Made by a program: the position numbers and the translations under genes. A DNA stretch of 15,242 bases from Candidatus Heimdallarchaeota archaeon (GTDB lineage: Archaea > Asgardarchaeota > Wukongarchaeia > Wukongarchaeales > JBHIFL01). The stretch lies in the NCBI GenBank assembly GCA_046761065.1, contig JBHIFL010000087.1:1-15242 (forward strand). Reading direction: 5' to 3'. Of this stretch, positions 2,510 through 13,275 are shown one piece after another (position 1 is the first letter of the stretch; every line of letters starts with the position of its first letter). Below the pieces are notes generated by a model. That model was not told the origin of the DNA, did no database searches, and was given only the letters and a program-made list of their open reading frames with translations.

Positions 2510-2625
2510 AGATATTTCTTGGAGGATCCTTCCAAAGGATCTAGATGGATTCCTTAGGGATCGTCTATCCCTGTATGGTGGTACTGCGCTCGTTTTTATC
2601 AGAAAATGCCGAGAAACTCTCTGCA
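2510..2625 (+). pseudogene. N-terminal remnant of an AbiEii-family nucleotidyltransferase toxin
   Basis: Reads ...DGFLRDRLSLYGGTALVFI... (LYGGTAL at 2571-2591), matching the AbiEii hxGGTAL motif. It ends where the tnpB remnant region begins. Confidence 0.45.
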
Positions 2626-2695
2626 AAAGCTGGGAGAGGAATCGCCCCCCACGGAGTTAAATGGTTCAGAAGATACCATATTTCGGGAGACAATC

Positions 2696-3175
2696 GTATA
2701 TCTAGTGCAAAAGAATCAGTTGCGAAGGTTAACAAAACCCGAGTACCAGCTCCTCCGCCACTTAACCCATTTGTCTAAGAACCTCTTTAACCATACGCTC
2801 TATATGGTGCGACAATATTTCTTTGCGGAGGGTGCGTTTCTGCAATACGAACAAGCCTATCATCATGCCAAAGAGAATGAGAATTACCGGATGTGGCCCT
2901 CCCAAGTTGCCCAGCAGGCGATGAAAGTCGGCACTCGCTCGATGCGATCCTTTTTAGCATGCTGCGGGAGTGGAAGAAGGGGAATTATAATCGTCCGATT
3001 CGGGTGCCTCGCTATTTACCAAAAGCTGGCTTCTTTGTGTGTGTATCTTCCCAAAAGATATGTTCAAGGTCGAAGGAGAGAAGATTCTCCTCTTGCCATG
3101 AAAATCTTGGAGGGGGAGCCACGTGGTGAGTAGGAGGTTCGACTGAAAAGCCTGGAGAGTGCGTGAATCGCGATG
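2696..3175 (+). mobile_element. tnpB: IS200/IS605-family tnpB pseudogene, frameshifted and internally deleted
   Basis: VYLVQKNQLRRLTKPEYQLLRHLTHLSKNLFNHTLYMVRQYFF...ENENYRMWPSQVAQQAMKV, frameshift, SMLREWKKGNYNRPIRVPRYLPKAGFF, frameshift, FPKDMFKVEGEKILL. It then jumps to a C-terminal-like GECVNR; no RuvC or Zn-finger region. Confidence 0.85.
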
Positions 3176-3255: not shown

Positions 3256-3738
3256 TCAGAGGGTTCTTAGGAACTCGTCCCATGTGAATGTTTTAATTTC
3301 CCTCGTTTCAGAGCATTCTCGCATGATGGCTTTTAAAACATCATCTTCCGTAATCAAAGTTCCATTTAAGGCGGCCGCAGAGCCTGCAATCCAACAGTCC
3401 ATCAGATCTTGATGCCCCAGGATCCACAATCGATCTGCAATGGAGTTGGTCGACTCGTCAAGAAATGAATGGTGAAGTTGGACTTGCTTCCCCCATATTA
3501 AACTGAGGGAGGCTTCCATATATCTATCTAAGACTTCTGGATTCCTGGTTTTTCGGTATTCACTCAGAACTATCCATTTCGCTTCGATCATCGAGCAAGA
3601 GCTCACTACGAATCTGATTTTTCTCTTTTTCTTAGTCAATAGAGTTTCCATGTCTCTTTTCAGCCCAGGAACGTCTATGTCTATTCCAAAGAAAGGTAGA
3701 ATGTACGTAGTATCCAAGATGAATGTGGGCGCTTCCAT
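3256..3738 (-). CDS. vapC: PIN-domain (VapC-family) toxin
   Basis: FILDTTYILP, SCSMIEAKW, HQDLMDCWIAGSA and LITEDD provide the PIN acidic residues. GTGGTGA RBS precedes ATG 3738 (the track starts the ORF at 3786). Confidence 0.88.
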   Translation of the reverse strand: MEAPTFILDTTYILPFFGIDIDVPGLKRDMETLLTKKKRKIRFVVSSCSMIEAKWIVLSEYRKTRNPEVLDRYMEASLSLIWGKQVQLHHSFLDESTNSIADRLWILGHQDLMDCWIAGSAAALNGTLITEDDVLKAIMRECSETREIKTFTWDEFLRTL

Positions 3739-3997
3739 TTGTTTCACCACGAGAAGGAACTCTAAGTTACGAGGATGGAGTTTCACCGAAGCAAAAATCA
3801 GAGCAGGACCGAAATACGTTCATTTCTATTTGTCAATAGCTGATATGTAGGAATTCACAAAGAACAATGGATGGAGGTCTGGGAAACTATAACTCTGGGA
3901 ATGAGATCCATAGTTACCTACCTCTGAGCTCTGTTTTGTTCATTCCCACAAGGAGTTGTTGCGAGATTGCGAGAGATAAACCAAAATCAAGGCCATC

Positions 3998-4829: not shown

Positions 4830-5483
4830 ATGAACCTTATGTCTCTTGTTCAAAAATATCGGAGGTACAGGAGACTTACGAGCAACTTAGTCATGAAAAT
4901 AATAAAGACCCACCTCCATAGCATTGTACTAAATAAAGCCGCGAGGTTACTTGGGCTCCTTAGGGGTGATTTCATGCTCTTTAGGGACGAGGAGGAAACC
5001 AGTGTTCTAATGGACTTCGCCCTCCATGAAGGCACAATGCATGGGAAAAACGCCATCGAGATCTATCGTGAGAAGAGGGGTGACCAGAATGAGGTAGAAC
5101 AAGAAATCTTGGACGCCTTGCTCGCCGCCTACACCTCCTTATTCAAAGTCCACTCCATCTCGAAAGCGGAACGCATGCTGCACTTGAGTGACCTCTTGAA
5201 CAAAAAAGACAATATACCACTGATTGATATCGGCCTCAGCCAAACCGTCACTCCCGGGATGTTGCTGTTCATTCGGTTTGTCCCATTTAAAGAGTTTAAC
5301 ATGACGTCTGGAATAGTATTTGCCTTTCCCAGTGACTTAGAAACATATCTTCAGCAGCAGTATAAGGAACTAGGGAAGATGATCAAAGTCCGATCAAAAC
5401 GCGAGGCCGTCGCGCGATTTGTGGCCTTTTTTCGATTAAATGAAACGCATGGCATAGAGGTCCATGAAGGCCCATGGAGATAA
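4830..5483 (+). CDS. Hypothetical protein, resembling an uncharacterised domain seen in SEC-C-motif proteins
   Basis: 217-aa intact ORF. The pattern DFALHE...GKNAIEIY...YTSLFKV...DLL...DIGLSQT...TSG looks familiar from memory only. TATA-like TTTATA at 4793. Confidence 0.75.
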   Translation: MNLMSLVQKYRRYRRLTSNLVMKIIKTHLHSIVLNKAARLLGLLRGDFMLFRDEEETSVLMDFALHEGTMHGKNAIEIYREKRGDQNEVEQEILDALLAAYTSLFKVHSISKAERMLHLSDLLNKKDNIPLIDIGLSQTVTPGMLLFIRFVPFKEFNMTSGIVFAFPSDLETYLQQQYKELGKMIKVRSKREAVARFVAFFRLNETHGIEVHEGPWR

Positions 5484-5528
5484 GTTAAAAAATGGAGAAA
5501 ATTTGAAACTCTCCCACCAGAGGAAGAA

Positions 5529-5773: not shown

Positions 5774-6505
5774 TCAATTACCGGCGGGTTTCCGTTTCGG
5801 TGGACTGATGACCGTTTGGATGTGAGCAATAGTTGGGTCCGTCTCATAGTGCAGTCCATACATACAATTTGCTTGTAAAACGCAGTCGACACACTTGGGC
5901 GCAGTTTTTTGACAGCGATTTTGCCCATGACACACGATTAACGCGTGAAACCGGCCCAAAATTTCCGGATCCTGAGGCAGGTCTTGGTGGAGCTCGTGTT
6001 GAAGCGCTTCATACGGGGTCGTGAGATAGGTCACGTCCCCGCGAAGCCGGGCGAAGAGGCGGCGCGTATAGGTGCCCACGACGGCCACCGGGCGGTGAAA
6101 GCAAAACGCCAGGATCGAATCCGCGGTTTCTAGGCCAATTCCTCTGCACGCGAGCAATTGGTGGCGGGAAGGAGGGATCCCGTGTGCTTGTTGAGTCAAT
6201 AGAAGCTTACTAAGCGCGTGAAGAGAACGTGCTTTTTGGGTAAGGAACCCGGCAGGTTTGATCAGGGCTTTAAGCCGCTCTGGATCCATCTGTTGTACCT
6301 GGTCAAAGGACGTGATTCCGGCGCGTTTCAAATTCGCGACGGCATGGTTCACATTCCGCCAATTCGTATTTTGCACTAGGATTGCCCCAATGGCGACCTC
6401 GAACAGTTCTGAAGGGCGTTTATTCGGTTTAAGCCAGAGCGCCCAGGTCTCAGCATGGGGTTCGAGAACCGGGTAATGCTGGATGAGGAGCTGATATAAC
6501 TTCAT
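5774..6505 (-). CDS. Endonuclease III-related HhH-GPD protein with a 4Fe-4S (FCL) motif
   Basis: GAILVQNTNWRNV, IKPAGFLTQKA, HhH LLACRGIGLETADSIL and CQKTAPKCVDCVLQANC (C-X6-C-X2-C-X5-C). ATG 6505 is preferred over TTG 6514. Confidence 0.9.
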   Translation of the reverse strand: MKLYQLLIQHYPVLEPHAETWALWLKPNKRPSELFEVAIGAILVQNTNWRNVNHAVANLKRAGITSFDQVQQMDPERLKALIKPAGFLTQKARSLHALSKLLLTQQAHGIPPSRHQLLACRGIGLETADSILAFCFHRPVAVVGTYTRRLFARLRGDVTYLTTPYEALQHELHQDLPQDPEILGRFHALIVCHGQNRCQKTAPKCVDCVLQANCMYGLHYETDPTIAHIQTVISPPKRKPAGN

Positions 6506-6637
6506 GAGTTGCAAGCTTAACAGGATCTCCCAAGAGGGTTAATAATTTCATTAGGAAAGGAACGGGAATATGAAATTTTTCTTGTAGTAGTACCAGCTAA
6601 GTGTTGAATAACCAAGATGTTTTTCTAATCTTACCAT

Positions 6638-6735
6638 ATGATTTATAGGGAAAACGAGGGAATTTGCTTGGAAGTACTCGAGAAATATCTCAAAAAAGAT
6701 CGGGAAGGCCGAGTCAAAGATCGAATACGCGGAAT
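6638..6735 (+). mobile_element. Possible IS630-type transposase N-terminal remnant, in frame with the next gene
   Basis: LEVLEKYLKKDREGRVKDRIRGI resembles the start of IS630 HTH transposases and then breaks off. Confidence 0.35.
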
Positions 6736-6751
6736 AGGAATTCGACATCAT

Positions 6752-8056
6752 ATGATGATTGAGTTCCAAAAGAAACTGCATAACGCGCCTATTGGTCGGG
6801 AGATTTGTCTAGCCGGCTTTATCTCTTTAATGGATCGTGGGTACTTTTTGGAGTTCCCTCCAGGGTCAGGGATCGGCATTTTCGTTTCAGGGCACGGTCT
6901 TGAAGACTATGTGGAGGGAGTATGTCTTGTGAAAGGAGTTGTTCGTCCTCTGATGGACGGGATGAATGTTGTTGGAAAGCAACTTGACGCAACGAAGTTG
7001 GAAGAGGACTACTACCCCGCGTATGATATGGATATCGCACCTCTGACGCCTTTTGAGACATTTAGCCTATTTAAGGAGCGGATTAATGCCCCAGAGCATC
7101 TCGCAAAAGCCTTATTCCTCAGTCCCACCAGTTCGCCGGTGGTCCTCAGTCGGATGGGTGGAGTGTCCACCATTTTAGATTTCCCAAGTCGGGTGGATTG
7201 CGATCGATCGAAAACGAAGAACATGGCAGAAATCGCTGACGTCGTCCTACACATGGTCCCTTCATGGCATCGATCGTTGAACGCATTAGGATTCTCTTTT
7301 TCCAAAATTTCCCGAGTGGACTCCAAGCTCGGTACCGTATTACGCGAGCGAAACGTGCCAAGACCGGAGGTGGGGGTGATCTATCCCCGATTATCCTATG
7401 ACAGCGTCCAAGAATTCTATGAGGCGGCATTAATGGAGAACACGATCGTTCTACAAGAAATCACCACAATGATCGCTCCAGATTTTGACCGATTCTTACA
7501 AGAGATCCAATGGTCGATTATGATTAATCATGCCCAACTCCGCCGACTTGGAGCCCCAGATCTCCCCTCCGGATGTGACCAACAAATTAACGACTGGTTT
7601 AACCGGATGAGAGACAAAGGTGAAATATACGAACACCACCTTAGATTCCAAGGCTTACTGGATATGAACTTTCAAGGAAGGCGAGGGATTATCTTACGGG
7701 TCATGGCCGCCCTCGCACGATTTGAGGAACGGCAACCCACCGAATCCCATCTAAAAGCAAGTCTCAAGCTACAAGAAGGCCTGCTTGAGGAATTCATCGA
7801 TGAACACGGTGGCTTAATCGCTGAATATGAAGAAGCCAAACATCTGAAGACATGGCTAGAGCCAATCAAGAAGCTCCGGAATTTGATATTTGACATCTGT
7901 CAATCCGACGGCAGCATCAGTAAAGCCCAGATCTTACAAGAAGCCCAAAAATTGAACGTGAAACGAAAAGATGCGAAGCAAGTATTGTTCGATTTACTCA
8001 ATGAAGGTTACCTGTATCAACCGACTCATGACGAGTTCTATAAATTGACTCCTTGA
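6752..8056 (+). CDS. Degenerate MCM-like protein (OB-like, eroded AAA+, lid, C-terminal winged helix) with no Walker A/B
   Basis: IGREICLAGFI...VCLVKGVVRP (MCM OB domain), APEHLAKALFLS (helix before Walker A), PDLPSGCDQQINDWFNRMRDK and GRRGIILRVMAALARFEERQPTESHLKASLKL (lid/sensor-2), ILQEAQKLNVKRKDAKQVLFDLLNEGYLYQPTHDEFYKL (archaeal MCM WH). The ORF is open from 6638. Confidence 0.7.
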   Translation: MMIEFQKKLHNAPIGREICLAGFISLMDRGYFLEFPPGSGIGIFVSGHGLEDYVEGVCLVKGVVRPLMDGMNVVGKQLDATKLEEDYYPAYDMDIAPLTPFETFSLFKERINAPEHLAKALFLSPTSSPVVLSRMGGVSTILDFPSRVDCDRSKTKNMAEIADVVLHMVPSWHRSLNALGFSFSKISRVDSKLGTVLRERNVPRPEVGVIYPRLSYDSVQEFYEAALMENTIVLQEITTMIAPDFDRFLQEIQWSIMINHAQLRRLGAPDLPSGCDQQINDWFNRMRDKGEIYEHHLRFQGLLDMNFQGRRGIILRVMAALARFEERQPTESHLKASLKLQEGLLEEFIDEHGGLIAEYEEAKHLKTWLEPIKKLRNLIFDICQSDGSISKAQILQEAQKLNVKRKDAKQVLFDLLNEGYLYQPTHDEFYKLTP

Positions 8057-8105
8057 ATATGTAAGAGAAAAACCTGGGTTACGCATCGGTTTGAAGGTGA
8101 GCTCT

Positions 8106-8501
8106 ATGCAGATCTCTCAAAAAATTGTTGAAACGGTAAAATCTTCATTAGACTTACTTTGTGCGTGTAAACAGGAGAGCGTGGTTCAAAATATCTTAGG
8201 GAGTCAATTGGATTGTCACGTACGCTATACCCTCGATTCAGATATGTATCCAAAGGTTGAAATTGATTTATTGGGCGAGAATTATGCGATCGAAGTAAAA
8301 TATAACAAGCCATACTACGATGGAATTAGTCAAGTGCTAATCCTGAAATACCTCTACAAGATTAACACTGTGATACTTCTGCACATCCATAGGTATTTGG
8401 ATTCGAAATTTACCAATGCGCTTAAAGAGCTCGCCAAGAAATTAGGCTTTATCGGGATTTTAGTTAATCAACGAGCAAAAACATTAGAAGTGGTACCCTA
8501 A
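8106..8501 (+). CDS. Small PD-(D/E)XK (restriction-endonuclease-fold) nuclease
   Basis: ESVVQ helix, EIDLL, AIEVK and DGISQ motifs. AAGGTGA RBS precedes ATG 8106. Confidence 0.72.
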   Translation: MQISQKIVETVKSSLDLLCACKQESVVQNILGSQLDCHVRYTLDSDMYPKVEIDLLGENYAIEVKYNKPYYDGISQVLILKYLYKINTVILLHIHRYLDSKFTNALKELAKKLGFIGILVNQRAKTLEVVP

Positions 8502-8502
8502 G

Positions 8503-9366
8503 ATGAAGGGCTTTAAAACGATCGCCTTTATTTCCGCCCCCGGAGGGGTGGGGAAGACCACGATTGCGCTATGCCTAGCTTGGTTTTTAGCAGAACGGAA
8601 TAAGAGCACCCTGCTTCTTGATTTAGACCCGAGTTTAGGGCTCACATTAACCCTCAAAGACTTTCGCGATTATTATCAAGAGATCGAATATAAACGATGC
8701 ACCTCTGCGGATTTATTGGAGAAAGCATTAGAAGGGGGACCGTCGCAAGATTTTGAGTTTAAGCACTTTTTGACGCGAGCCCCATTTCAAGGAGTTACCT
8801 TGGAGTTTATCGCGTCGAGTATTCGATTGGAGGATGTGATGGGTAAGATCTGGCATACGCCGACTGCCGGGCATAGTGAGAAAAAGCTCAAGGAAGCCTT
8901 AGGGTATATTCCGGGAAACTTCAACTACGAGTATCTGTTGATTGACAATATCCCGTGCTATGGACTCACCTATGCCCTTACGACCATCCACGCGTCAGAC
9001 GCTTATATTGTGCCACTTCGCCTTACGATCAACGATCTCGGGAGAACCCTCCAAATGATAAAGAAGTTGCAAGAGACCGCGGCTAAATTTGATCTCAGTG
9101 AAGAGCAATTCGTCAATAAGCTCTATTTTCTCTATAACATGGTGGAAACGCAGTATAGACGCGAATCCAAAATCCCTACCTATGAGAAACAAATACGCAA
9201 CATGTTTCCGGGGGCTAACTTCTTTGAGGCATTTGTCCCAAGCCAAGTCGGGTTTACACGGATAGGAACGGAAGAGGAGAGGCCCGGAGATTCCAAAAAA
9301 GTGCGTGAGCTGTTCAAGCCCTTTTATACGGATTTTGAACGAAAGATTATGGGACAATATTGGTGA
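8503..9366 (+). CDS. parA: ParA/MinD-family ATPase
   Basis: SAPGGVGKTT (Walker A), LLLDLDPS (A'), YLLIDNIP (Walker B), ASDAYIVP. Separated by 1 nt from the nuclease stop codon. Confidence 0.88.
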   Translation: MKGFKTIAFISAPGGVGKTTIALCLAWFLAERNKSTLLLDLDPSLGLTLTLKDFRDYYQEIEYKRCTSADLLEKALEGGPSQDFEFKHFLTRAPFQGVTLEFIASSIRLEDVMGKIWHTPTAGHSEKKLKEALGYIPGNFNYEYLLIDNIPCYGLTYALTTIHASDAYIVPLRLTINDLGRTLQMIKKLQETAAKFDLSEEQFVNKLYFLYNMVETQYRRESKIPTYEKQIRNMFPGANFFEAFVPSQVGFTRIGTEEERPGDSKKVRELFKPFYTDFERKIMGQYW

Positions 9367-9394
9367 TTGGCAGTATAAATGAGATTAAGCATTT

Positions 9395-10923: not shown

Positions 10924-11152
10924 ATAGCCAAATTAGAAATATTGTTTATTTTGTTTGGGCTTGATCCTGGCTGCGATTTCTGATTATTAAATAAATTAAT
11001 GTTATAAGATCCTTGGTCTTCTCTTTACGAGTACTAAATGAATCCGCGGTACAAAATCATCTGAAGGAATTTAATACGCATAAAAGACGATTTTTAAGAC
11101 AGGACTTAAGGGGATTTGGCTTTTTAACCTAGCCAGCCCCCTTTTTCGCAAT

Positions 11153-11666
11153 CTATACCAGAAAAGGAAGGAACATCCTCGGCGTTTTCATATATGCAAG
11201 ATATTCATCCCCAAACCTCTTTATATTATCCTCCTCCACCTTGGCAGTCATTAAAAAAAAGATAAACCCGAAGGTGAAAAGCTGGAAACCTAGAACGGAA
11301 GGAGCCTTTACAAACACCCCCACTCCACCGAGAAGCCCGGAACAGTATATCGGATGACAGATATATCGGTTAGGCACCTATCGTTATAAGTTGTGTAGTA
11401 CCTTCGATTTCTTCCTCGGGGGATCCCACGACAAGAAGAAGTCTAAAACTATGAAGCCCTAATATAAGTGGACTCGCTAGAAATATCCAAGAGATTAATT
11501 GACAGGGTGAAAGAGGATCTCGAAACAAACTTCAAGCATTTAAAAGAGCCAGTGTAAAAAGACTTTCAATAGCGAAGAAACGAGGGAAGTGATGCTTATA
11601 GGGTCTTCTTAGCGAAAAAACTAGAAGTAGGATAGAAAGCAGGATGAAGATCCCTAGTTCAATCAT
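11153..11666 (-). pseudogene. Isoprenylcysteine carboxylmethyltransferase (ICMT/PEMT)-family membrane protein pseudogene
   Basis: MIELGIFILL...LLNA* (TGA 11532-11534)...EGTTQLITIGA, frameshift near 11370, RYICHPIYCS...AKVEEDNIKRFGDEYLAYMKTPRMFLPFLV. Confidence 0.85.
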
Positions 11667-11894
11667 CCACAAACCTTAACGACAGCAAACCAGGATCGGC
11701 GTCTTTCCACAAGTCAGGGAATTTCTCAGAATGTTCAATAACTTTACCTTTCTAGCCTTCTTCGCGATAACATTGCCCAACAATTGAATTGTTTAGTTTA
11801 AATATCTCCAACATGCAGTCTGCCAGTTGTTCGTTTCGTTATGCTTGCATATTCTTGCTGAGCCATTTCAGAATCCCTTGAGGAGGATTATTCA

Positions 11895-12023
11895 GTGAAC
11901 TACCCATGCCTAAATGCTGGGACTTGCTATGAATCCGCTGAACCTCATACCACGCGAACTTGATGCGCGCCTACCCGGTGTCTTACTGGTAACTCCCCTT
12001 CCAATGACGGTTCGGCAGTCATT
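11895..12023 (-). mobile_element. Orphan IS200/IS605-type end (second GTAGTTCAC-ending remnant)
   Basis: Plus strand GTGAACTACCCATGCCTAAATGCTGGGACTTG is the same end type as at 4566. Hairpin AATGAC-N9-GTCATT at 12003-12023. Confidence 0.6.
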
Positions 12024-12216
12024 AAGTCCTTAAAAACAAGAAAAGAACGCGTTAGACGAATTGATGATTTCTTTTCAAACTGGTTAATCCCATAAAATCC
12101 GGAGAAATTGTCTACACTTATTGGGCAATGTTTTTAACGAAGCCGACGAAATACTTTTTCTAGTGTATGAGTGCCGTACACACCTTAACAGATTATAGAA
12201 ATTGGGGGTTAATTCG

Positions 12217-12375
12217 TTGAAATTGGTCACAGTTCACTTACCTGAAGAGTTCCTTACGGGATTAGCCGAATTAGTGCGATCGAGGAGATATCCGAACCGT
12301 AGCGAAGCCATCCGAAACGCGATACGGGATCTGTTGAAGGAGGAGCTTTGGCCGCGCTCGGGTAATAATCGTTAG
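12217..12375 (+). CDS. Ribbon-helix-helix (CopG/CdrS-like) regulator, 52 aa, absent from the ORF track
   Basis: TTG start; MKLVTVHLPEEFLTGLAELVRSRRYPNRSEAIRNAIRDLLKEELWPRSGNNR. GGGGGT RBS upstream; imperfect palindrome GTGTATG-N5-CGTACAC at 12163-12181. Confidence 0.85.
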   Translation: MKLVTVHLPEEFLTGLAELVRSRRYPNRSEAIRNAIRDLLKEELWPRSGNNR

Positions 12376-12667
12376 AGTATTTTGGTGGGTAATAGCCCAA
12401 GGTTCTAAATGGCGAAGAATTTCGTTCCTAGTGGCTCCTGCCCGCGCAGTCCTCTCCGCAGCCATCCGTTCCGCGACGACTTTCTACTCCTCTTTGATCG
12501 TCCTACTTTCAAGTTTCCCTCTTTCGGATACTTTTTTGAATCTTTAGCTCCCCAAGGTTCTTGAACACCTCTCTTCCCTTCAGTTTCTGGTAGATTGGGA
12601 ACCTTCGAAATCGCTGGATTAATTATAACTGCAGTCCCAATGAATCTTCAAAAAGTCAAGAGGAGAT

Positions 12668-12937
12668 ATGCAAATTGGCCAGAACTCGAATGAAAATGGA
12701 TCCATTGCAAACTGTCAATCGAGCGCTCGTAAAAAAAAGGCCTTGAGCCTCCCACATATTGTGGGCTTAGATTACGACGATGAGGCTGATGTCCTCTACA
12801 TCTACTTTAAGATCAACCCTGAAATCGCGGAGAGCGATATGATCGATTAAAGAAGCTTGGTTTATATAGAAAGGAATGCAAAAGGCGAACCGGAAGGGTT
12901 AGTTATTGTTAATGCCTATAAACTGTGGCAAGAGTAG
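12668..12937 (+). pseudogene. DUF2283-domain protein pseudogene
   Basis: LDYDDEADVLYIYF...AESDMID* (TAA 12848-12850) RSLVYIERNAKGEPEGLVIVNAYKLWQE. A further frameshift is likely in the A8 run near 12731. Confidence 0.75.
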
Positions 12938-13275
12938 CCAATCGACAGAGAAACCCTGACATGTCACCTACTTGGCACCCCTCTTTATTGTTAATATCCT
13001 ATCAATCTCACTCAGATGAAGCACTAAGCTTTTATGCGATTTTTTGATCCATTTACTTCCTTCCACATTCTACTCTTTGGTATCTGCAAAATGCATTCAT
13101 GACCACGAATTGCTCCCTTTTTTCTATCCCTTCGTACCCAAGCGCCCCATATCGAGGATTGGGTCCCCAATGCGGAGGGGGTGTCATGGGACACGAGCTT
13201 CACTCCGGCGTGATCGCTTATCAAGAGCCTGAAGATCGTCTCCCTCACCAAACCACACCTTCAAGTGACATAAAA

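Follow-up and report, generated by a model that had tools for sequence, protein, structure and literature searches.

The window analysed here, the whole of contig C87 (15,242 bp) in a 4.4 Mb metagenome-assembled genome of 234 contigs from a Heimdall/Hod-type Asgard archaeon, carries an intact and previously unannotated gene that we call pseudo-MCM. Taking all evidence together, its product is best explained, with a probability of roughly 0.55, as a paralogue derived from MCM that serves as a binding module and not as a motor. The overall layout of MCM is present, with an oligonucleotide/oligosaccharide-binding (OB) N-terminal domain, an AAA+ core, a lid and a C-terminal winged helix. The initial annotation, made from the sequence alone, had proposed a miniaturised and catalytically dead MCM paralogue, and this proposal is supported by the predicted structure, by profile homology and by a family-wide loss of motifs.

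Gene model and predicted structure

The reading frame is open on the plus strand from 6638 to 8056 and has two candidate starts (Table 1). The TTG at 6668 is the start used in the protein database for the 462-aa protein P0002, whose residue numbers we use throughout. The initial annotation had placed the start at the methionine codon at 6752 and the length at 434 aa. This is too late, because conservation begins upstream at LE.LEKYLKKD when the start region is aligned with two homologous loci. About 28-38 residues were cut off in this way from a protein of 462-472 aa, and in the AlphaFold2 (AF2) model they form three short helices, which represent either a remnant or a replacement of MCM subdomain A.

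The AF2 model of P0002, built on an alignment of 11 rows, has a predicted local distance difference test score (pLDDT) of 84.2 and a predicted template modelling score of 0.77. The OB region spans just about 70 residues and includes the strands EICLAGFISLM (45-55) and GVCLVKGVVRPLMD (84-97). Two helices at 128-154 precede a five-stranded alpha/beta core at 168-296, and the one that leads up to strand beta1 (TILD, 168-171) is EHLAKALFLSPT (143-154). The lid is helical over 303-352 and its last helix is GRRGIILRVMAALAR (337-351). In total, the AAA+ core and the lid amount to about 270 residues between the OB fold and the winged helix. The MCM-like segments had been read from the sequence as standing in the correct order with a winged-helix tail, and in the model each of them sits at the place given for it, the tail folding as a winged helix.

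When the model is searched with Foldseek, more than 400 matches are found at E<=0.001. All matches listed are MCM proteins, the best with an E-value of 9e-12, and the model superposes on the MCM AAA+ core and lid with a root mean square deviation of 3.5-3.9 A over 220-250 residues. In a structure search independent of Foldseek, RavA scores 12.1, BrxL 10.6 and MoxR, ComM and BchI 9.2-9.7, all below MCM. A homodimer prediction (two copies, alignment A2) scored 0.00 and bears neither way on self-association.

Table 1. Pseudo-MCM, its predicted domains and the two genes downstream, in window coordinates
Feature	Residues	Position	Strand	Basis or remark
Pseudo-MCM gene	472 aa (ATG start) or 462 aa (TTG start)	6638 (ATG) or 6668 (TTG) to 8056, stop 8054-8056	+	ORF (open reading frame) list, translation, database gene call, start-region alignment
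Three short N-terminal helices	1-38	6668..6781	+	AF2 helices 2-9, 12-20 and 25-38, pLDDT 81-91
OB fold, five strands (45-112), no zinc-finger insertion	~42-113	6791..7006	+	AF2
Stripped AAA+-like alpha/beta core	~125-296	7040..7555	+	Includes two pre-beta1 helices and invariant SSP...GG (155-165)
Loop in Walker A position, FPSRVDCDRSKTKN	172-185	7181..7222	+	Alignments, regular-expression scan of 34 members; local pLDDT ~60
Lid domain	~300-353	7565..7726	+	hhalign, PDB profile search, phrog_10371, NF040949
Long linker helix, 36 residues	359-394	7742..7849	+	AF2; aligns to MCM lid-to-winged-helix linker
C-terminal winged helix, archaeal MCM type	396-462 (398-460 in AF2)	7853..8053	+	Motif LYQP...FYKL, equivalent to MCM LYEPK.GF.K
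Small downstream protein	136 aa (151 aa in relatives)	8091..8501	+	D...ExK-like motif; no Pfam match
ParA/MinD-type ATPase	287 aa	8503..9366	+	Pfam AAA_31 1.2e-18, CbiA 3.3e-14

Homology to MCM and comparison with known proteins

The sequence homology to MCM is concentrated in the C-terminal part. The pseudo-MCM protein has nothing above threshold in Pfam, an MCM match included, and a Pfam scan across the family gives matches to MCM_lid and MCM_WH_arc which are all sub-threshold. The NCBIfam MCM model NF040949 aligns residues 302-466 to profile positions 514-678 with an E-value of 0.0018 (16.6 bits against a cut-off of 940), and the phage DNA-helicase family phrog_10371 matches the same C-terminal part with an E-value of 8.5e-6. 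Much stronger matches are obtained with a profile of the family. Against the PDB it finds the C-termini of archaeal MCM proteins (8x7t, 5e-15; SsoMCM 4fdg, 5.4e-10) and the isolated SsoMCM winged helix 2m45 (2.5e-8). Against ten canonical Asgard MCMs, hhalign gives a probability of 98% and an E-value of 1.9e-13 over 124 columns. These comprise the last lid helix (GIILRVMAALAR versus EALVRLAEA.AR) and, after it, the linker and the winged helix, whose wing has the motif LYEP...Y(K/R); no part of the protein before the lid helix aligns in this comparison. The resemblance to MCM is far beyond chance. An exhaustive phmmer search of 1.8 billion representatives returned only 13 relatives, and a scan of the genome collection with P0002 as query gave no match.

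Compared with canonical archaeal MCM (NF040949; structures 8x7t, SsoMCM 4fdg and 6mii, and the PfMCM AAA+ domain 4r7z), pseudo-MCM is about 220 residues shorter. It lacks the zinc finger along with Walker A, Walker B, sensor 1 and the arginine finger, and subdomain A is down to three short helices. The lid helix (RQLE..IRL.EA.AR) and the archaeal winged helix are shared.

Inactive relatives of MCM are found in other lineages. MCM-BP and MCMDC2 are eukaryotic MCM relatives without ATPase activity, and the likeness to them is one of concept, that of an MCM-derived protein without ATPase motifs which coexists with the replicative helicase. The MCM-BP hidden Markov model PF09739 (MCM_bind) finds nothing on the protein at E<=10 and nothing at E<=1 in five genomes carrying the family, and at the sequence level we see no evidence for common descent of pseudo-MCM with the eukaryotic proteins. 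No paper that treats both MCMBP and Asgard was retrieved in a literature search. An archaeal precedent, which the initial annotation did not mention, is MkaMCM2 of Methanopyrus kandleri, an MCM homologue described as inactive, which naturally lacks internal segments and does not conserve Walker A (PDB 3f8t; PMC2933578). This structure is the best unbiased structural match to pseudo-MCM. The family profile shows no sequence similarity to 3f8t at E<=1, and therefore the two proteins have probably been eroded independently. MkaMCM2 also belongs to a different phylum, whereas the pseudo-MCM family is kept across a whole Asgard lineage.

Two other assignments have been considered. BrxL, RavA/MoxR, BchI and ComM lack the MCM-type arrangement of OB fold and winged helix, their structure scores are clearly below those of MCM, and none of the PADLOC models, that of BrxL included, matches pseudo-MCM, which also has no Lon-like domain at its C-terminus. 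A protein of the RPA32 type, made of OB fold and winged helix only and without an AAA+ lid, had been named as a possible outcome of structural comparison, and the RPA_C model does reach an E-value of 0.083 on pseudo-MCM, which is below its cut-off. This identity is ruled out because the AAA+ core and lid that lie between the two domains superpose on those of MCM.

Lost and conserved residues

The catalytic motifs were located by the order of secondary-structure elements, not by superposed coordinates, and were scanned with regular expressions in 34 family members. After beta1 comes the loop FPSRVDCDRSKT, in which FPSRVDCD leads into RSKT, where the following helix begins; a glycine-rich loop is absent. 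Neither GDPGxxKS nor GxxGxGK[ST] is found at the Walker A position in any of the 34 members, and Walker B is likewise absent from its homologous position in all of them, strand beta3 (EVGVIYPR) ending in P-R and not in D-E. After beta4 (NTIVLQE) there is no conserved sensor-1 asparagine. A conserved SRFD arginine finger is also missing, and R283 in FDRFL (281-285) varies across the family. A CxxC pair is present in 0/34 members versus 9/10 Asgard MCMs, so that there is no zinc finger. The replacement of GDPGxxKS and the lack of IDEFDKM and a zinc finger, first noted in the query, are features of all 34 members. The core itself is about 170 residues long compared with about 250 in MCM, which leaves no space for full-size DNA-translocating hairpin insertions of the h2i and PS1 type. 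The K-T of RSKT is limited to the closest relatives, and is missing from P0008, from P0011 and from all Thorarchaeota members.

A different set of residues is conserved across both branches of the family. These are G50, P64/65 and G90 in the OB fold, P198, and Y450 in the winged helix. Just before beta1, S155, P157, G164 and G165 are invariant, G165 being the counterpart of the RG that precedes beta1 in MCM. In the lid, A350 and R351 are invariant, and R338 and R344 are nearly so. When the hhalign alignment of the lid helix is extended by hand, R338 is offset by one residue, towards the C-terminus, from the place of the sensor-2 arginine in MCM. According to one review, sensor 2 acts in trans in MCM (PMC4619765), and R338 could have such a trans-acting role. 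The calculated isoelectric point of the query is 6.2, and most of the Thorarchaeota-type members are basic (about 9).

Selection and taxonomic distribution

Three pairwise comparisons were made to estimate the ratio of nonsynonymous to synonymous substitution rates (dN/dS). The homologue in locus L003 (88% identical) gives 0.15 and that in locus L036 (70% identical) gives 0.13-0.15. Homologues that keep their Walker motifs would have pointed to a copy that is merely decaying; none of the 34 examined does so. Motifs are conserved across branches that are only 15% identical. Judged from these sequences, pseudo-MCM is a functional protein under selection and is not decaying.

For the distribution we scanned 400 genomes of the phylum with a profile of the N-terminal 330 residues, which does not cross-match to real MCMs. 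In the Thorarchaeota-type genome family (f6), 86/87 genomes are positive, almost always with one intact frame of about 480 aa. Outside this family we find one genome in each of four other families, plus the source genome, and no match in the other larger families of 135, 31, 22, 19, 14 and 12 genomes. The divergent branch is thus a single-copy core chromosomal gene in the Thorarchaeota-type family, and is sporadic elsewhere in Asgard archaea.

The source genome encodes its canonical MCM separately from pseudo-MCM, in a 1216-aa open frame on another contig (C9:39439-43035). Its AAA+ domain is interrupted by about 520 residues without an MCM-profile match, between profile positions 416 and 414, and this insertion is most likely an intein. 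A second copy of the pseudo-MCM locus lies on contig C166 (L025:1-1033) and is degraded. It holds the start of ParA, a 151-aa small gene and only the last ~90 codons of pseudo-MCM with one TAA inside the remnant, at 86% nucleotide identity to window positions 7781-8813. Farther along this contig, beyond 2.5 kb of unrelated sequence, window positions 5169-5525 recur at 90% identity (L025:3599-3955).

Genomic context

In the window, pseudo-MCM is followed by a small gene and a ParA/MinD-type gene (Table 1), the latter starting 1 nt after the stop codon of the former. The small PD-(D/E)xK-like protein belongs to a family of 7 clusters only, all at least 62% identical. Locus L003 holds the same three genes, and its 88% nucleotide identity to the window is confined to positions 6519-9382, with different flanks; no direct or inverted repeats were found flanking this block. 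We rejected the idea of an obligatory three-gene system. The small protein and ParA (Walker A SAPGGVGKT) occur as a pair without pseudo-MCM in another locus (L059:6001-7261), and other genes follow pseudo-MCM in the 70%-identical relatives: a 182-aa protein, an 836-aa AAA_16-like ATPase and a NERD protein in L036, and a 222-aa protein, a 623-aa protein with AAA_16 and Mrr-like (Mrr_cat_2) domains and a NucS/PD-(D/E)xK nuclease (NucS_C) in L037, with Cas6 nearby. The small protein and ParA are frequent neighbours, not obligatory ones, and form the context of pseudo-MCM and not a part of it. One nuclease downstream in the 70%-identical relatives matches PADLOC PDC-S02 (3e-26), and the gene for P0011 adjoins a JetD_C-like gene. 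The contigs of P0010 and P0014 are too short for the gene context to be read. Its behaviour in the source genome is that of an accessory gene, placed in a variable region.

The Thorarchaeota-type loci look different. In 26 of them the order of an NYN/OST-HTH protein, a Fer4 protein, an N6/N4 DNA methyltransferase and pseudo-MCM, all in one direction, is kept. The methyltransferase is directly upstream in 19/26 loci with gaps of -74 to +59 nt, a frequent but not fixed arrangement. Downstream follow gelsolin (on the opposite strand), an Fpg/Nei glycosylase, an M20 peptidase and a 374-aa ORF which, as read from its sequence, is a fructose-bisphosphate (FBP) aldolase/phosphatase. These loci carry actin as well as gelsolin genes.

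Several further observations concern the surroundings of the gene. DNA glycosylases of different families stand beside pseudo-MCM in both branches: in the window a divergently oriented HhH-GPD (EndoIII-like) gene (5774-6514, minus strand), and in Thorarchaeota the Fpg/Nei gene two genes downstream in 18/26 loci (e.g. L058:8077-8922). This could be a coincidence or a hint at DNA repair. Farther upstream in the window are short ORFs with no or weak Pfam matches, encoding 175 aa (2606-3133, plus strand), 176 aa (3256-3786, minus strand; PIN-like, E 0.0066) and 217 aa (4830-5483, plus strand), the last duplicated on C166; they fit a variable region rich in gene fragments. Positions 10924-13275, about 2.3 kb, hold no ORF of at least 100 aa on either strand and may be a broken or interrupted gene, or an RNA; tRNA and Rfam scans of the window gave no match there or elsewhere.

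In one of the 70%-identical relatives, the QW of a conserved EIQWS is replaced in frame by TAA TAG (L037:8838-8846), which splits the gene into ORFs of 280 and 177 aa without a frameshift or other damage. The split could mark a recent pseudogene or a natural division between OB fold plus core and lid plus winged helix. In a genome of another Asgard family (G047), a 229-aa ParA-like gene with a SASGGVGKT-type Walker A, 32% identical to the ParA of the window, lies 3.5 kb upstream of pseudo-MCM with membrane-protein genes in between (L070:1086-1775). A candidate second pseudo-MCM beside the G090 gene, a 486-aa ORF, was rejected because the family profile does not find it and its sequence reads like that of a pyridoxal-phosphate-dependent enzyme.

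Proposed function and alternatives

Pseudo-MCM is best explained as a derivative of the archaeal replicative helicase MCM. The five-stranded AAA+ core with its lid, the OB fold and the winged helix are still there in the predicted structure, and the ATPase motifs, the zinc finger and most of subdomain A have been lost. The lost motifs and the shrunken core, as seen in sequence and structure prediction, indicate that it cannot act as an ATP-driven helicase. The protein presumably cannot translocate on DNA and would act by binding. Its strongest MCM-like constraint is on the lid helix and winged helix. In eukaryotes the lid/winged-helix unit contacts ORC-Cdc6 during loading. In SsoMCM the same unit modulates the ATPase allosterically (PMC4357721). 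This constraint, together with the roles of the unit elsewhere, leads us to favour a non-motor factor that would bind to DNA, to MCM or the MCM loader, or to both. The OB fold and the lid-helix/winged-helix unit might hold DNA, a partner that normally recognises MCM, or both. Such a partner could be MCM itself or a loader of the Orc1/Cdc6 type, in which case pseudo-MCM would modulate the loading or assembly of the real helicase. We regard this replication-regulator form of the proposal as tentative, at less than even odds. Its most specific form, in which a dedicated Asgard factor without ATPase activity binds MCM or Orc1/Cdc6 through lid, winged helix and OB fold as a prokaryotic counterpart of MCM-BP-type regulation, is doubtful.

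Several points weigh against a non-motor binding module of this kind. We only infer the binding to MCM, Orc1/Cdc6 or DNA, and in the loci read there is no MCM, Orc1/Cdc6, GINS or other replication gene beside pseudo-MCM. Nucleases and STAND-like ATPases abound around the gene in the close clade, which fits a role in defence or mobility at least as well as one in replication. The RSKT of this clade may leave some nucleotide binding there. Finally, the N-terminal 330 residues are MCM-like by predicted structure only, and the AF2 alignments are shallow, with 11 and 34 rows.

The gene contexts raise the question whether pseudo-MCM instead belongs to a mobile-element or defence module, as the component that recognises DNA or serves as the adaptor. 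It would sense or hold the DNA, on which variable downstream effectors act. Here these would be the PD-(D/E)xK-like protein and ParA, and in relatives the AAA_16/STAND ATPases with Mrr, NERD and NucS-type nucleases. The restriction of the homology with L003 to the three-gene block, the degraded second copy of this block on C166, the AAA_16, NERD, Mrr_cat_2, NucS_C and Cas6 genes and the PDC-S02 match near the 70%-identical relatives, the JetD_C-like gene beside P0011 and the methyltransferase that directly precedes most of the Thorarchaeota copies examined all speak for such a module. It would, however, be a module with no fixed partner, because pseudo-MCM occurs without the small protein and ParA in L036 and L037, while this pair occurs without pseudo-MCM in L059. 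No flanking repeats delimit a mobile unit, and PADLOC has no model for pseudo-MCM. In Thorarchaeota, moreover, it is a single-copy core gene amid the housekeeping genes for gelsolin, Fpg/Nei, M20 peptidase and FBP aldolase/phosphatase, unlike a defence island. We consider this explanation unlikely on balance.

Two further explanations carry less weight. The degenerate AAA+ core might be a cryptic enzyme that binds a nucleotide or other ligand through SSP...GG, the RSKT remnant and the lid arginines, and so works as a ligand-controlled switch and not as a motor. The residues before beta1 and in the lid that are invariant or nearly so in both branches would suit such a site, as would the position of R338 near sensor 2 in the hand-extended alignment and the K-T that the close clade retains where the helix after the P-loop position starts. 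We find this improbable given that both a glycine-rich loop and a Walker B acid are lacking, that the K-T is missing from P0008, P0011 and all Thorarchaeota members, and that the loop at the P-loop position is modelled at low confidence. The last explanation is that the gene has no function of its own and is the decaying remnant of an MCM gene that had been duplicated or carried by a virus. The two in-frame stops in place of the conserved QW in L037, the truncated second copy in the source genome and the patchy distribution outside Thorarchaeota are what a relic might show, but the low dN/dS, the intact frames in nearly all Thorarchaeota-type genomes, the motifs conserved between such distant branches and the confidently predicted, compact fold have largely refuted it, and we think it very improbable.

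Significance

Inactive MCM paralogues are known in one euryarchaeon, where the structure has been solved, and in eukaryotes, as MCM-BP and MCMDC2. The pseudo-MCM family belongs to Asgard archaea, the archaea most closely related to eukaryotes. In a 2025 survey of Asgard replisomes, MCM is treated as mostly single-copy, and the part of the text available to us contains no mention of this family (PMC12680538). Set beside the inactive paralogues known elsewhere, this suggests that pseudo-MCM, which is conserved, under selection and intact in structure, is a part of Asgard DNA biology that has not been described before, as far as that part of the survey reaches. The window adds to the family a divergent accessory branch outside Thorarchaeota, with variable neighbours and degraded copies in a Heimdall/Hod-type genome. 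If pseudo-MCM acts on the loading of MCM, the regulation of the helicase by dead paralogues would predate eukaryotes or run parallel to them. If instead it senses DNA as an adaptor on behalf of methyltransferases or nucleases, it would add a new example of the reuse of a replication protein for such a purpose.

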